Assembly: GCA_031423895.1 (NCBI GenBank) | Contig: JANPGK010000035.1 | Coordinates: 6,720-70,719, forward strand | Source of the DNA: Hyphomicrobiales bacterium | Lineage (GTDB): Bacteria; Pseudomonadota; Alphaproteobacteria; Rhizobiales; JANPGK01 | Length of the DNA stretch: 64,000 nucleotides | Direction of reading: 5' to 3' | Shown: one piece after another, positions 6,711 through 40,567 of the stretch | Layout of the letters: every line of letters starts with the position of its first letter | How positions within the stretch are numbered: position 1 is the first letter of the stretch | The notes under the pieces: model-generated | Database searches by the model: none | The model's input: only the letters and a program-made list of their open reading frames with translations | Told to the model about the DNA's origin: nothing | Position numbers and translations under genes: made by a program

Positions 6711-6727
6711 TGCAAACAGCGTGCCAA
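6711..6727 (-). promoter_or_regulatory. Sigma54 (-24/-12) promoter of fliK-flgD
   Basis: Minus strand TTGGCACGCTGTTTGCA matches TGGCAC-N5-TTGCA. Confidence 0.8.
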
Positions 6728-10265: not shown

Positions 10266-11105
10266 ATGACGATGCCCCATCACGCAATTAATCTTCTGCA
10301 CCTTGGTGAATTTACCATTGCCACGTTTTTAGCGCGGCACGATATGCGCAATATTGGTGTGCTGCTGCGGCATCACCCGAGTGAAACGGTGCTGTGTATT
10401 GATGCGCCGCACGCGCCCACCATCATGCATGTTGCGCAGCAATTGGGGTGGCATATTCACCATTTGCTCATCACTCATCATCATTGGGACCATGTGGAAG
10501 GGATTCTTGAGCTAAAAACCGCATATAATTGTACCGTGTATGGGCGCGACCATCCCAAAATTGCGCCGATTGATGTGGTGCTGGTGGAGGGGCAAGATAT
10601 TCGGATTCCCACATTGCGTAGCGATGTGAACGAGCAAAGCGAAGCGCGCAGCGTGGAGGAGTTTGAGGGGGAACACCCTCAATCAGATAATCACATTCAA
10701 CTGCAAACGATCTGCGCCACTGGACATTGCAACACGCAAATTGCCTATTATATTCCCAAAATTGACTGTGCCTTTGTGGCTGATGCACTGTTTAATCTTG
10801 GCTGTGGCCGCATATTGCAAGGCACGCATGCGGAAGCGTTTGCCACATTTCAGCGCATCAAAACCTTGCCGCCGCACACGCGCCTGTGGTTTGGGCATGA
10901 TTACTATGCGCCAAATGCCAAAGTGAGCTTAATTTTTGCGCCTGATGATGCCGAAATTTTGGCCTATATGGAACAAATGGAGGCGCGCACGCAGGCCATG
11001 CCATGCCCCATTATGCTGCAGCACGAGGCCGCAGCAAATTTATTCATGCGCGCAGCAACAGTGGAAGAGTTCACGGCGTTGAGGGTGAGGAGGGATCGGT
11101 TTTGA
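10266..11105 (+). CDS. gloB: Hydroxyacylglutathione hydrolase (glyoxalase II) with ~25-aa repeat-derived insert
   Basis: THHHWDH metallo-beta-lactamase motif, DALFNLGCGR, GHDY, C-terminal LRVRRDRF. Confidence 0.88.
   Translation: MTMPHHAINLLHLGEFTIATFLARHDMRNIGVLLRHHPSETVLCIDAPHAPTIMHVAQQLGWHIHHLLITHHHWDHVEGILELKTAYNCTVYGRDHPKIAPIDVVLVEGQDIRIPTLRSDVNEQSEARSVEEFEGEHPQSDNHIQLQTICATGHCNTQIAYYIPKIDCAFVADALFNLGCGRILQGTHAEAFATFQRIKTLPPHTRLWFGHDYYAPNAKVSLIFAPDDAEILAYMEQMEARTQAMPCPIMLQHEAAANLFMRAATVEEFTALRVRRDRF
10608..10686. repeat. Palindromic insert inside gloB (family D, single copy in window)
   Basis: Hairpins CACATTGC-GTA-GCGATGTG and TTGAGGG-GGAACA-CCCTCAA around GCGAAGCGCGCAGCG; encodes PTLRSDVNEQSEARSVEEFEGEHPQS, which I do not expect in GloB. 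Confidence 0.6.
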
Positions 11106-11225
11106 CCCCCTCTCCCCTTGCGGGAGAGGGTGCCTCGAAGAGGTGGGTGAGGGGTCGCTTAGAATAAATAAGAAAACCCCTCATCCGTCAGCTACGCTGC
11201 CACCTTCTCCCGCAAGGGGAGAAGG
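11106..11225. repeat. Palindromic element, family C, between convergent gloB and phaB
   Basis: CCCCTCTCCCCTTGCGGGAGAGGG...CCCCTCATCCG...CACCTTCTCCCGCAAGGGGAGAAGG; same termini as the xerD insert. Confidence 0.9.
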
Positions 11226-11235
11226 AAGATCTCCA

Positions 11236-23717: not shown

Positions 23718-24574
23718 AATTTCCACCCTTGATGCAGCGCCACAATGCCAGCAGAAAAGCGTGTGAACTTTGTGCGTTTGAAGCCCGCCTGCTGCATTTC
23801 CAGCTCCAGCCGTTGCGCGCTAGGGAATTTGCGGATCGATTCCGCCAAATAGCGGTAGGAGTCTGCATCATTGGCTATCCATTGCCCCAATTTTGGCATC
23901 ACATGCAGCGAATAGGCATCGTAAACCTGCTTCACGCCCGGCATTTCAACTGGTGAAAATTCGAGGCACAAAAACTGCCCGCCGGGCTTCAATACACGGT
24001 GAAATTCGGCCAATGCGGTGGTGCGGCGGGGCACATTTCGCAGGCCAAATGCAATGGTGACGCAGTCGAATGTGGCATCGGCAAATGGCAGCGCTTCGGC
24101 GTTGCCGAGGATGATATTGACACACTTACTCCCCTCCCCTTGCGGGAGGGGGTAGGGGGAGGGGTTTTCTTTCTTAGAAGTAAGAATACCCCCCTCAGTC
24201 TCGCTTACGCTCGACAGCTCCCCCGCAAGGGGGGAGCGGGAAGAAAACCGCACCGCCGCCTCGCGCAACATTGCCTCATTTATATCCAGCAATGTGGCGC
24301 TGTAGCGCGTGCCTGCGCTTTGCAGTGCGCGCGCCACAATATCGCCCGTGCCGCCCGCCACATCCAAATGTGCAAATGGCAGGTTTCCACGCGGAATGTG
24401 CATTTTGGTAATCAGGCTTTGCTTCCACACCCTGTGCAGCCGCAGCGAGAGTACGTCATTCATCAGGTCGTATTTGCTGGCCACCTCATCAAACACATGG
24501 TTCACGCGCCCTTGCTTTTGTTCAAGGGGAATGGTTTCAAAGCCAAAGTCGATGGTTTCGGGTGCATTTTTCAT
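23714..24574 (-). CDS. ubiE: UbiE/MenG C-methyltransferase with in-frame repeat insert
   Basis: VASKYDLMND, LDVAGGTGD, IAFGLRNV, YRYLAESIRKFP. Confidence 0.94.
   Translation of the reverse strand: MKNAPETIDFGFETIPLEQKQGRVNHVFDEVASKYDLMNDVLSLRLHRVWKQSLITKMHIPRGNLPFAHLDVAGGTGDIVARALQSAGTRYSATLLDINEAMLREAAVRFSSRSPLAGELSSVSETEGGILTSKKENPSPYPLPQGEGSKCVNIILGNAEALPFADATFDCVTIAFGLRNVPRRTTALAEFHRVLKPGGQFLCLEFSPVEMPGVKQVYDAYSLHVMPKLGQWIANDADSYRYLAESIRKFPSAQRLELEMQQAGFKRTKFTRFSAGIVALHQGWKL
24129..24237. repeat. Palindromic element, family C, in frame inside ubiE
   Basis: CCCCTCCCCTTGCGGGAGGGGG...CCCCCTCAGTC...GACAGCTCCCCCGCAAGGGGGGAGC; matches 24902-25048 and 13978-14088. Confidence 0.95.
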
Positions 24575-37687: not shown

Positions 37688-38644
37688 TTACCCCGCCTCT
37701 CGCAATTCACGCGGCAGTGGGAAGAACATATGTTCCTGCGCGGTGCTGATTGTTTCTAGCACAATGGTGCGGGTGAGTGCAAATTGTGCGATCACTTCTT
37801 CAATCAACACCTCTGGCGCGGAAGCCCCCGCCGTGATGCCAATGGCGCGTACATCGGCAAATTGCGCCATGGGCACATCATCGGCCCGTTCGATGAGCAG
37901 CGAAAGCGTGCAGCCTTCGCGCTCGGCCACCTCGCGCAAGCGTTGCGAGTTGGAAGAGTTGGGCGACCCCATCACAATAAACGCATCCACCAGCGGCGCA
38001 ACCTTGCGCACAGCCTCTTGCCGATTGGTGGTGGCGTAGCAAATATCTTCCTTATGCGGGGCGATCATTGATGGAAAACGTCGCTGCAGCACCTCAATAA
38101 TGGCGCGGGTGTCTTCCACAGAAAGCGTGGTTTGGGTGACATACGCCAGCTCGCCCGCAATCGGCGGGGTGTAGGCTTCGGCTTGGGCTTCGGTTTCAAT
38201 CAGGCTGACAGCCTCCAGCGGCAATTGCCCCATTGTGCCAATCACTTCAGGGTGGCCAGCGTGGCCGATCAGCACAATATGCCGCCCACGCTTGTAGTGA
38301 ACTTGCGCCTCGCGGTGCACTTTTGTCACCAGCGGGCAGGTGGCATCAATGGCAAAAAAATTGAGATTTTTGGCTTCAGCGGGCACTGATTTTGGCACAC
38401 CATGCGCCGAAAACACCACGGGCGCACGCGTGCCAGCAGGAATTTCGTACAATTCCTCCACAAACACAGCGCCTTTGGCGCGCAAACTCTCCACCACATA
38501 GCGATTATGCACAATTTCATGCCGCACATACACGGGTGGGCCATAGTTTTTCAGCGCCACTTCCACCACATCGATCGCCCGCACCACGCCCGCGCAAAAC
38601 CCACGCGGGGAGCAGAGGATGATTTTCAAAGGTGGTTGTTGCAT
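37688..38644 (-). CDS. ispH: 4-hydroxy-3-methylbut-2-enyl diphosphate reductase
   Basis: PRGFCAGV, DATCPLV, ICYATTNRQ, TAGASAPE. Confidence 0.97.
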   Translation of the reverse strand: MQQPPLKIILCSPRGFCAGVVRAIDVVEVALKNYGPPVYVRHEIVHNRYVVESLRAKGAVFVEELYEIPAGTRAPVVFSAHGVPKSVPAEAKNLNFFAIDATCPLVTKVHREAQVHYKRGRHIVLIGHAGHPEVIGTMGQLPLEAVSLIETEAQAEAYTPPIAGELAYVTQTTLSVEDTRAIIEVLQRRFPSMIAPHKEDICYATTNRQEAVRKVAPLVDAFIVMGSPNSSNSQRLREVAEREGCTLSLLIERADDVPMAQFADVRAIGITAGASAPEVLIEEVIAQFALTRTIVLETISTAQEHMFFPLPRELREAG

Positions 38645-38691
38645 GAATGTATTGTAGCGCGGGGTTTAGTAAGAGGCAAGAGGTGATGCAC

Positions 38692-38771
38692 GTGTCATCC
38701 TAACGCAGTGAAGGATCCCCTGCCCATCGCGCTCCACTTTAGGAAGATTCTTCGCTCCGCTCAGAATGACA
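38692..38771. repeat. Palindromic element, family A (diverged), between xerD and ispH
   Basis: GTGTCATCCTAACGCAGTGAAGGATC...ATCGCGCTCCA...GCTCAGAATGACA. Confidence 0.88.
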
Positions 38772-38788
38772 AGGCTCTATTTTCTAAT

Positions 38789-39898
38789 TCACCCCTTCCC
38801 CAGCGGGTGGCACTCTTGCACGAAGGCGTGCAGGCGTTCATCTTGCACATGAGTGTAAATCTGTGTGGTGGTGATGTCGGCATGGCCCAGCAGCGTTTGC
38901 ACCATGCGCAAATCCACCCCATGATGCAGCAGATGGCTGGCAAACGCGTGACGCAGCACATGGGGCGAGAGCGGATCAGCATTCAGGCCAGCACGGCGCG
39001 CCAGCGCTTTCAATTCGCGCGCAAAGGCTTGGCGGGTCATGTGGCCAGTGGCGCTGCTCGCGGGAAATAGCCACGGCGAGGGGCTTGGCGGCAGCATGGC
39101 AATATAGGCGGCGATTGCGGTTTGCGCACCTGCGTGCAGCGGCACAAGGCGCTCCTTCCCGCCCTTGCCTTTGATGGTGAGGAAGTTTGCAATTCTTCCT
39201 CCTCTCCCTTGACGGGAGAGGGTACCGCGAAGCGGGGGGTGAGGGTGTTCTTGGGAATGATTGACCCTGCCATTCGCAGGGCTCATGGCGTTTAAATCTA
39301 AAAACGATTCACTGGATCGTTTTTGCAGCTTCGCTGCCGATTCAAACCCCTCATCCGTCCCTATCGGGACACCTTCTCCCGTCAAGGGAGAAGGGAGGTG
39401 TATACCTTTCATCGGCAGCCCCACCAACTCACTCACCCGCAGGCCTGCGGCATACAGCAGCTCTACCTGGGCGTAGAGTTGCACAGATTTTAGACGTTTT
39501 GCAGGCGTGGCGTCCGCCATTTGATGAACTTCCCGCTGCGCGTGCTCGATCAGCACCGTGACAGCGTTTTCACTCATGGTTTTGGGCAAGGCAGGCGCCA
39601 GCTTTTGGCTTTGCAAAAGGGCTGTGGGGTTGTTCTCCCGCGCATTTTCCGCCACTAAAAATTGGTAGAATTGCGAGAGGGTGGAGCGTTTGCGGGCCAC
39701 GCTGCGCGGGGCAAGCCCTTGTGCCGAAAGATGTGCTAAATAGGCTTGCAAGGTGGCGGTGTTGATCGTTGCAATGGGAGCGGAACCGCAAAAATCGGCA
39801 AAATCGTGCAAATCGCGGCCATAGGCTTCTAGCGTATTGTGTGCTGCACCGCGCTCGGCCCGCAGCATCATCAAAAATTCATCGTGCCAATTGGTCAT
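38789..39898 (-). CDS. xerD: Tyrosine recombinase XerD with 67-aa in-frame repeat insert
   Basis: AERGAAHNTLEAY, GLRVSEL, GKGGKER, SPHVLRHAFASH, LLGHADITTTQIY; divergent from aroKB. Confidence 0.92.
   Translation of the reverse strand: MTNWHDEFLMMLRAERGAAHNTLEAYGRDLHDFADFCGSAPIATINTATLQAYLAHLSAQGLAPRSVARKRSTLSQFYQFLVAENARENNPTALLQSQKLAPALPKTMSENAVTVLIEHAQREVHQMADATPAKRLKSVQLYAQVELLYAAGLRVSELVGLPMKGIHLPSPLTGEGVPIGTDEGFESAAKLQKRSSESFLDLNAMSPANGRVNHSQEHPHPPLRGTLSRQGRGGRIANFLTIKGKGGKERLVPLHAGAQTAIAAYIAMLPPSPSPWLFPASSATGHMTRQAFARELKALARRAGLNADPLSPHVLRHAFASHLLHHGVDLRMVQTLLGHADITTTQIYTHVQDERLHAFVQECHPLGKG
39198..39398. repeat. Palindromic element, family C, in frame inside xerD, with internal hairpins
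   Basis: CCTCTCCCTTGACGGGAGAGGG...CCCCTCATCCG...CACCTTCTCCCGTCAAGGGAGAAGGG; 201 bp. Confidence 0.93.
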
Positions 39899-39958
39899 GT
39901 GCAAATTTCTACACCAAATGTGTTGATTTTTAGTGCAGTTTCACGTCTTATCGCGGTT

Positions 39959-40567
39959 ATGAATATAGACCAACCCCATAGCACGTCGAAAGGGCGCAAA
40001 GCGCTTGATCAACAACTGCGCCAGATCACCAAACAATTGGGCGCGCGGCCCATTGTGCTGGTGGGCATGATGGGCTCGGGCAAAACGACGCTGGGGCGGC
40101 GCTTGGCCAAAATGTTGAAGCTCGATTTTCATGATAGCGACCACGAGGTGGAGCTGGCTGCGGGCATGACAATTCCCGATATTTTCTCAGCTTTTGGTGA
40201 AGCCTATTTTCGTCAAGGCGAGGCCAAAGTGATCGCGCGGCTGGTGAAGGATGGTCAGCAGATATTGTCGCTGGGTGGCGGCGCATTTATCAATGACGAC
40301 ACCCGCGCATTGGTGAATCAAGGCGCGGTTTCTGTGTGGCTGCAAGCCCCAGCCGATGTATTGATGACACGCCTGCGCCGCAAGCAAAATCGCCCGCTGA
40401 TGCTCACAGATAACCCCGAAGATACACTGCGCACATTGATAGAGGCGCGCCAGCCGCTCTATGCGCAGGCCATGGTGCATGTGGACTTGCAAGATTACGC
40501 AGTGGAGCGCGCCGCGCGGGAAATTATTGGCGCCATTCATGCCCATATTGTGAAAGAGAAACAATGA
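39959..40567 (+). CDS. aroK: Shikimate kinase
   Basis: GMMGSGKTTLG, DSD, LGGGAF, RPLM. Confidence 0.93.
   Translation: MNIDQPHSTSKGRKALDQQLRQITKQLGARPIVLVGMMGSGKTTLGRRLAKMLKLDFHDSDHEVELAAGMTIPDIFSAFGEAYFRQGEAKVIARLVKDGQQILSLGGGAFINDDTRALVNQGAVSVWLQAPADVLMTRLRRKQNRPLMLTDNPEDTLRTLIEARQPLYAQAMVHVDLQDYAVERAAREIIGAIHAHIVKEKQ

Follow-up and report, generated by a model that had tools for sequence, protein, structure and literature searches.

How did the only XerD recombinase gene of a bacterial genome come to carry 67 extra codons between two of its catalytic residues, and what would they mean for the enzyme? The gene lies in a 64,000-nucleotide window (positions 6,720 to 70,719 of contig JANPGK010000035.1, assembly GCA_031423895.1), whose first letter is position 1 here. 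Its host is an uncultured Hyphomicrobiales-type alphaproteobacterium from freshwater sediment, represented by a metagenome-assembled genome (MAG) of 1.90 Mb in 39 contigs that is 100% complete by marker genes. The xerD coding sequence occupies 38789-39904 on the minus strand and specifies 371 amino acids from a TTG start, or 369 from an ATG at 39898 two codons later; it is supported by the list of open reading frames (ORFs) and by Pfam, NCBIfam, PDB, and Foldseek matches. An earlier note, made from the sequence alone, had described a 67-residue, 201-bp composite insert at 39198-39398, between the catalytic Arg and Lys. We found its length to be right and its position to be off by one base, with the codon-exact, in-frame insertion at 39197-39397 (minus strand; 67 codons, residues L170-G236). 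Very probably, this insert is selfish repeat DNA resembling the Rickettsia palindromic elements (RPEs), which landed in xerD without breaking the gene and is tolerated there.

The insert in the XerD catalytic domain

Within the catalytic domain, the insert separates R156 from K247, which we take, from alignment to E. coli XerD (PDB 1a0p), to be the equivalents of R148 and K172. It enters between positions equivalent to S161 and L162 of the E. coli protein, presumably in the turn between strands β1 and β2, so that the protein reads GLRVSELVGLPMKGIH, then 67 residues, then RIANFLTIKGKGGKERLVPL. The alignment to 1a0p breaks at this point, pairing residues 8-170 and 243-360 of the query with residues 7-160 and 166-287 of the chain. 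The bounds given here are set by codon phase and do not fix the true ends of the element to the base.

Alignment with the 51 closest orthologues, which the earlier note had proposed, showed the insert to be absent from all of them, with at most five residues in its 67 columns in any one protein. The nearest two, P0002 (67% identity) and P0003 (63%), both lack it. Deleting the insert in silico leaves 11 residues between LPMK and KGKGG, exactly the spacing of P0002, where the note had spoken of about normal spacing. The turn varies in length among orthologues, since P0003 carries ~7 extra residues at the same site. At the level of the order, 40 of 40 relatives match the protein in two adjoining pieces (approximately residues 8-166 and 240-370) without the insert; no other species of the host's family was in the searched set. 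A protein search with residues 166-240 retrieved only the protein itself at E <= 0.001 among 17 candidates of 204-650 aa. The insert is therefore confined to one genome among those searched.

The gene around the insert is otherwise a well-preserved xerD. Its product has the two-domain architecture Phage_int_SAM_1 (PF02899) plus Phage_integrase (PF00589), and 1a0p is both its closest PDB match by sequence and the closest Foldseek match of its AlphaFold2 (AF2) model. The best NCBIfam equivalog is XerD, with 279.7 bits in two pieces against 223.4 bits for XerC, and the PRK00283 subfamily score of 301.5 exceeds its cut-off of 279. All six residues of the R-K-H-R-H-Y set that the earlier note had listed as present (R156, K247, H315, R318, H341, and Y350) occupy invariant columns of the 52-sequence alignment. 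Of the 115 columns with conservation of at least 90% among orthologues, XerD matches 107 (0.93), and the same measure among the 51 orthologues runs from 0.887 upward with a mean of 0.974. By its sequence, then, xerD shows no decay, and its conservation is within the range of its orthologues.

The genome offers no substitute. A second, uninterrupted xerD beside a decaying interrupted copy would have undercut the earlier note, and none was found: the interrupted copy is the only XerD-type recombinase, the other matches being one XerC-type paralogue on contig C31, which scores best as XerC, and three distant integrase-type proteins. An FtsK gamma domain is present within an 885-aa frame. As a separate observation, a second, partial FtsK gamma match (profile positions 24-62) occurs at C4:109636-109752 in a 62-aa frame. 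This frame lies downstream of the complete ftsK gamma domain, at a distance of ~850 bp, and near a copy of the repeat described below (C4:110619-110717).

Two nested repeat families

The insert is built from two outer arms in inverted orientation. The low-coordinate arm (39197-39245), a module like the E. coli repeats called TMECO with an enlarged second loop, comprises a hairpin of CCTCTCCC (39201-39208) and GGGAGAGG (39214-39221) closed by the loop TTGAC, a mini-hairpin CCGC-GAA-GCGG (39225-39235), and the G-tract GGGTGAGGG (39237-39245). The high-coordinate arm (39348-39397) holds the C-tract CCCTCATCC (39348-39356), a CGTC-tagged mini-hairpin, GTCCC-TATC-GGGAC (39357-39370), and a hairpin of CCTTCTCCC (39372-39380) and GGGAGAAGG (39386-39394). 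On each side, the outer ~48 bp repeat a single module in inverted orientation (C-rich hairpin, small hairpin, and GGGTGAGGG or its complement), and the insert ends in terminal inverted repeats with 28-nt arms that are 86% complementary. We see no clear target-site duplication around the outer element.

Between the arms, alignment with the copies of the repeat in uvrC, priA, trpE, and ygfZ delimits two remnants of an original spacer, at 39246-39264 and 39339-39347, on either side of an inner module of 74 nt (39265-39338, our module D). The inner module contains three hairpins, CCCTGC/GCAGGG (39265-39281), a central AAAAACGATTCA/TGGATCGTTTTT (39300-39324) that holds a GANTC site (GATTC) at 39306, and GCAGC/GCTGC (39325-39337). 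The first remnant ends in GATTGA (39259-39264) and the second begins with GATTCA (39339-39344), a possible 6-bp duplication that we read directly from the sequence; a second GANTC site is at 39339, and these two sites, both within the insert, are the only ones in xerD. The earlier note had reported a spacer of ~20 bp replaced by ~100 bp with three more hairpins. All three hairpins are indeed present, each in the minimum-energy DNA fold, and the extra DNA is real. The spacer was not replaced, however, as a spacer of ~22 bp received ~80 bp of a second repeat, namely the inner module plus the possible duplication. As single-stranded DNA, the insert folds at -60.8 kcal/mol compared with -28.7 +/- 3.0 for 200 shuffles (z -10.7, no shuffle as good), and its mRNA fold reaches -106.5 kcal/mol (z -9.2).

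Genome-wide, the outer element belongs to an abundant family. A profile built from 22 full-length copies gave 195 nhmmer matches, which resolve into 98 loci in the 1.90 Mb, mostly between genes. Within the window, a short-form copy lies between genes at 11105-11228 (contig C35:17824-17947). This is the copy with which the earlier note, citing 11106-11225, had matched the ends of the insert, and the match holds at 83% over 48 nt and 80% over 55 nt. Another copy, at 24127-24236 (minus strand), lies in frame in a ubiE-type methyltransferase gene, with Ubie_methyltran matched on both sides. The small hairpins co-vary between copies with zero mispairs, as at column pairs 33:47 (CG 16, AT 4, GC 1, TA 1), 35:45 (TA 12, CG 8, GC 1, GT 1), and 108:118 (AT 12, GC 8, CG 1, TA 1), which argues that the structure itself is conserved, as DNA or as RNA. 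On its sequence, the insert is a copy of a palindromic interspersed repeat of ~120 bp and not a protein domain.

Copies of the repeat also lie in frame in other genes. We counted 37 combinations of ORF and element with 40 or more open codons on either side, and 26 of these ORFs reach 250 aa. Pfam was run on 20 of the 26, the remaining six being xerD, two ORFs that are doubtful or apparently antisense, and those at C4:110619, C8:81716, and C9:49521. Domains were matched on both sides of, or across, the element in 13 of the 20, on one side only in five, and not at all in two. By domain content, the 13 are trpE, gltX, uvrC, a metallophosphoesterase gene, metH, priA, gcvT, ubiE, anmK, ygfZ, ispE, prmA, and rsmB, which with xerD makes at least 14 in-frame copies in recognizable genes, several of them in DNA replication or repair (uvrC, priA, xerD). 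The arms in xerD align base for base with those in uvrC, priA, trpE, and ygfZ on the coding strand, in the same orientation and frame. These five copies share the peptides LPSPLTGEG... and ...HPHPPLRGTLSRQGRG, and LPSPL[TA]GEG recurs among the in-frame copies. The spacer is where they part: ~22 nt in uvrC, priA, trpE, and ygfZ compared with ~100 nt in xerD. Elsewhere, at C8:117752-117929, a pair of arms stands ~57 bp apart instead of ~22 bp, and this is probably a further composite copy.

The inner module forms an interspersed family of its own, separate from the arms, with 14 loci in the genome by nhmmer. We had considered that the inner part might be the remnant of a gene for a DUF559 endonuclease, which was rejected on finding this separate 14-locus family. 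At three other places the module is nested between arm pairs of another sub-type, indicating that the composite architecture recurs; it may have come to xerD by a later insertion or traveled there as part of a composite unit. Its 21-nt GANTC hairpin core, AAAYGATTCACTGGATCRTTT, occurs at 120 or more metagenome loci (~200 estimated), far above chance. Among 120 listed core loci, 14 resemble the inner module over at least 60 profile positions, and 47 belong to another repeat class that shares the core only, in the context GTTCGGCGGGAAA...CCGCCTCAC. We also observed that a few metagenome copies of the core abut the ends of tRNA genes or occupy the loops of C-rich hairpins. In the host genome, an rlmJ-type gene (C34:14761-14936) carries an in-frame insert of ~85 aa made of the inner module and a half-element, a second translated composite.

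Only one of the six frames is open across the insert, and it is the xerD frame. The same frame is also open in three of the five other inner-module copies compared, including all three nested copies. Openness is accordingly a property of the element and no proof of selection on xerD.

Searches of other kinds gave nothing further on the insert. Its only Rfam match was a spurious one to the miRNA precursor MIR856 (18.6 bits against a cut-off of 297 bits), blastn of 39250-39350 in distant mode against 72,556 plasmids returned no match, and our literature search found no paper that joins XerD with a palindromic element.

The sequence of events that we propose would begin with a palindromic repeat of ~120 bp, of the sub-type seen in uvrC, priA, trpE, and ygfZ, inserting into xerD. 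This repeat would comprise two inverted arms, each combining a C-rich hairpin with a smaller, co-varying one and a tract of G or C, and its spacer would carry ~80 bp of the second, three-hairpin GANTC repeat, inserted later or co-traveling. The single intrinsically open frame of the element would have fallen in phase with xerD, so that the ribosome would read through and add 67 residues at the β1-β2 turn. For mobility, our leading guess is a link to DUF559 endonuclease genes flanked by like arms.

Consequences for XerD and competing explanations

The AF2 model, a check that the earlier note had suggested, is confident in the core and of low confidence in the insert at the β1-β2 turn. The mean predicted local distance difference test (pLDDT) score is 31-62 in the ten-residue blocks of 171-240, compared with 88-96 in most other blocks, the exceptions being block 101-110 and the C-terminal blocks from 341. 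One weak helix is predicted within the insert (residues 184-200), and the model suggests that the inserted loop is probably disordered. In a three-stranded antiparallel sheet, the turn with the insert would lie at the end opposite the β2-β3 turn, which presents the catalytic Lys to the DNA, and the loop would adjoin the C-terminal end of β3, near the start of the following helix. In E. coli XerD, as a passage in PMC5052618 describes, activation by FtsK gamma, on the face opposite the DNA, requires E183/E184 of that helix. With the loop placed by topology away from the DNA end, a block of DNA binding or of chemistry is unlikely, and the activation surface may be touched. On the sequence evidence, the protein is presumably made and active, and probably still works with XerC and FtsK.

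Two independent Logan contigs, covering 38300-39242 and 39216-40400 with 0 differences, speak to the assembly. Each holds one half of xerD and enters the insert, by 46 nt and 182 nt, respectively, and jointly they cover every base. The empty-site joint, 39196 to 39398, was not found among Logan contigs, which can miss rare variants. Joints inside the insert, from 39222 to 39370 and from 39247 to 39373, have only 22 letters on their short side, with other letters, and we read them as other copies of the repeat. Among sequencing runs, one contains the DNA in full (maybe the source sample) and another a low share of it; in run X2 the organism is sparse and the insert uncovered.

Several observations weigh against an intact and tolerated XerD. 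The NCBIfam XerD score of 279.7 misses the equivalog cut-off of 329.6, as is expected when the insert splits the match in two. pLDDT is low at 343-352, around the catalytic Y350, although the sequence there is invariant; helix mobility in DNA-free recombinases may be reflected in this. From sheet topology, the loop could possibly interfere with activation by FtsK gamma. The stable mRNA structure could hinder translation or attract RNase III, and no RNA run is listed as containing this part of xerD. As E. coli can do without XerD, a frame that is still open could merely reflect a recent insertion. Finally, the two Logan contigs share just 27 nt, which lie within a repeated arm; none of the public contigs was seen to cross the entire insert by itself, and both Logan contigs may derive from the source sample.

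The insertion may instead have inactivated or crippled XerD, leaving a young pseudogene-in-waiting whose frame is open intrinsically and has had too little time to close. We consider this unlikely. It agrees with the open frame in three of five other inner-module copies, which needs no selection, with the place of the insert between the catalytic Arg and Lys and, by topology, near the region where FtsK gamma and the XerC tail would dock, with the very stable mRNA hairpin, and with the viability of E. coli that has lost XerD. Against it stand the status of the gene as the sole xerD of a genome complete by markers, in which xerC and FtsK gamma are kept, and the lack of decay at conserved columns and catalytic residues alike. 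In addition, like inserts in 13 other Pfam-supported genes, uvrC, priA, gltX, and metH among them, indicate that the element is generally tolerated, and the turn that received it in xerD was already variable in length.

It is distinctly improbable that the insert has been co-opted, the loop tuning FtsK activation or the XerC-XerD contact, or the GANTC-bearing DNA or RNA structure controlling xerD expression. Such a role could draw on the confinement of the two GANTC sites of xerD to the insert, the first within the central hairpin, on the conservation of the hairpin core across metagenome loci, on the position that topology assigns to the loop near the FtsK gamma contact face, and on the weakly predicted helix. 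The insert is nevertheless found in one genome among those searched, its sequence is plain repeat-family sequence with near-identical peptides in unrelated enzymes, its AF2 confidence is low, and the peptide gives no sign of selection.

Less probable still, the assembly might have joined two xerD halves through the repeat, the true locus having no insert, a different insert, or a full-length element. The genome is a MAG in 39 contigs and the public Logan contigs break inside an arm, yet both run into the insert without a difference and between them cover every base, none joins the empty site, and the joined sequence stays in phase, reads open in the frame needed, and gives exact orthologue spacing once the insert is removed. 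A self-removing element, an intein or an intron that would leave mature XerD without the insert, is hardly conceivable: an in-frame position inside a catalytic domain is where inteins usually sit, but 67 residues are far below intein size, the Pfam matches of XerD are to three integrase families only with no intein or Hint domain, the Rfam match is spurious, and the sequence belongs to interspersed repeat families found mostly between genes.

DUF559 genes and related repeats

We return to the preferred reading, a selfish repeat tolerated in xerD, and to how such a repeat might move. Three DUF559 endonuclease genes in the host genome (C8:97460-97768, C37:45148-45459, and C18:25780-26100) are each flanked by like arms in the orientation of the short element, with the gene in place of the spacer. 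These arm-flanked loci look like the full-length form of the element. The best match in the genome to the high-coordinate arm of xerD is the arm directly after the DUF559 gene on C8 (C8:97399-97447), with 95.9% identity over 49 nt. No RAYT/Y1 transposase (PF01797) was found in the genome, leaving a REPtron-type origin unsupported.

We looked for C-rich 8-bp hairpins under deliberately strict settings at 28 DUF559 loci, the three of the host genome and 25 from elsewhere in the order (16 other families). Within 200 bp of a DUF559 gene (12.6 kb) there were 18 such hairpins, compared with two in the remaining 67.8 kb of these loci; related loci do not count as independent, and we devised the test only once the pattern had been noticed. 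At least one such hairpin is present at 12 of the 25 foreign loci and none at the other 13. In E. coli K-12 (NC_000913.3; locus L141 3706-3741), a canonical TMECO lies between ycjD and fabI, 167 bp downstream of the DUF559 gene ycjD, which is a single anecdote. At the same place, the end of ycjD is overlapped by a degenerate module, and the DNA between this module and the TMECO includes a partial duplicate of the ycjD 3' end. The pattern fits a mobile unit with arm ends and DUF559 cargo, and it fits equally well sites that both prefer. Judged by title and abstract, no paper retrieved on DUF559 and palindromic repeats treats such a link.

Among described repeats, RPEs behave most similarly; passages in PMC10969869 and PMC2229807, which summarize Ogata et al. 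2000, describe palindromic repeats in frame in many unrelated genes, with host proteins that are thought to keep their fold. As in those descriptions, the repeat here is interspersed and palindromic, of the 100-150-bp class, with one open frame and a conserved peptide, in frame in unrelated housekeeping genes (~98 loci, at least 14 in-frame cases with Pfam support), a likeness of behavior and not of compared sequences. RPE hosts are obligately intracellular, whereas the present host is an uncultured Hyphomicrobiales-type bacterium from freshwater sediment. The family here is, moreover, GC-rich and TMECO-like, and its copy in xerD is a nested composite of two repeat families.

In sequence, the arms resemble the TMECO/BoxC/PIT repeats, which are described as an intrastrand-triplex motif. 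As the motif is set out in PMC4666352, they share the order of C-rich 8-9-mer, 5-nt loop, complementary G-rich block, second loop, and GGGTGAGGG, with blocks near-identical to E. coli TMECOs such as CCCTCTCCC..GGGAGAGGG..GGGTGAGGG. The first part of the published definition, a C-rich 9-mer, a 3-6-nt loop, and a complementary GGGNGAGGG, describes CCTCTCCC-TTGAC-GGGAGAGG at 39201-39221. The second part, a 3-nt second loop followed by another GGGNGAGGG, does not describe the xerD copy, where the loop is ~15 nt long with its own co-varying hairpin, although the second G block, GGGTGAGGG, is present at 39237-39245 despite the enlarged loop. Other arm sub-types in the host genome have the canonical 3-nt second loop, TTA, and inverted TMECO pairs occur in E. 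coli too, according to the published account. Holder et al. 2015, in the part that treats E. coli MG1655, call the motif "always located intergenically", with no mobility genes nearby (PMC4666352). Here, by contrast, arms are found in open frames inside genes and bracket DUF559 genes.

Other families are more distant. Di Nocera, De Gregorio and Rocco 2013 described CGTC-tagged repetitive extragenic palindromes (REPs), mostly alphaproteobacterial, as head-to-head dimers, without a transposase and some of them inside replication or repair genes, in the sections of PMC3733652 on these repeats. The high-coordinate mini-hairpin begins with CGTC (39356-39359) and has the tail ACC (39371-39373), where the published tail consensus is CCA. 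Unlike those REPs, the low-coordinate arm has no CGTC, and the xerD stem GTCCC/GGGAC is 5 bp long as against a published 8-9 bp with A/T in the first two positions (PMC3733652), a comparison with the published description and not with family consensus sequences. The CIR repeats (CcrM-associated) are alphaproteobacterial-type stem-loops as well, and the inner module has GATTC (39306) in its hairpin at 39300-39324 and a core strongly conserved across metagenome contigs. As characterized in a passage of PMC2229807, however, CIRs are ~110 bp long, strictly intergenic, and stopped in all six frames, whereas the module in xerD is 74 nt long, intragenic, and open in one frame; this comparison is again one of descriptions. 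Like MITEs (miniature transposable elements with inverted repeats), the element is small, with terminal inverted repeats and a long stem-loop, and longer versions carry a gene between like ends, but that gene encodes a DUF559 (Vsr-like) endonuclease and not a transposase, which sets the family apart from MITEs. Inteins differ by their Hint/splicing domain, of which Pfam finds none here.

A bolder proposal, which we hold only tentatively, joins these strands. The palindromic dimers, the xerD copy included, may represent a mobile unit in its gene-less, MITE-like state, a unit with putatively triplex-capable TMECO/BoxC ends and DUF559 (Vsr-like) cargo, and the composite in xerD may record two successive colonizations, the later one by a GANTC-hairpin module with a preference for the spacer of the earlier. 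If true, this would supply a mobilizing enzyme for the long-unexplained TMECO/BoxC/PIT and CGTC-type repeats and would explain their entry into essential genes. The present data strengthen the repeat-DUF559 link, which is testable; the published work on the E. coli motif, in the part concerned with its genomic setting (PMC4666352), reports neither mobility genes nor intragenic copies.

The insert in xerD is less surprising than it first appeared, being one of many in its genome and having an inner part that is a separate repeat; the phenomenon itself is already known, and xerD is one more case of something widespread in this genome. What it adds is the nesting and the link to DUF559. It extends selfish DNA inside genes, known from Rickettsia, to a free-living-type alphaproteobacterium and to a TMECO/BoxC-like repeat, with inserts that can be nested. 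If XerD is active, the β1-β2 turn of a tyrosine recombinase tolerates 67 residues between the catalytic Arg and Lys, which would be useful for engineering these enzymes and for interpreting other odd integrases.

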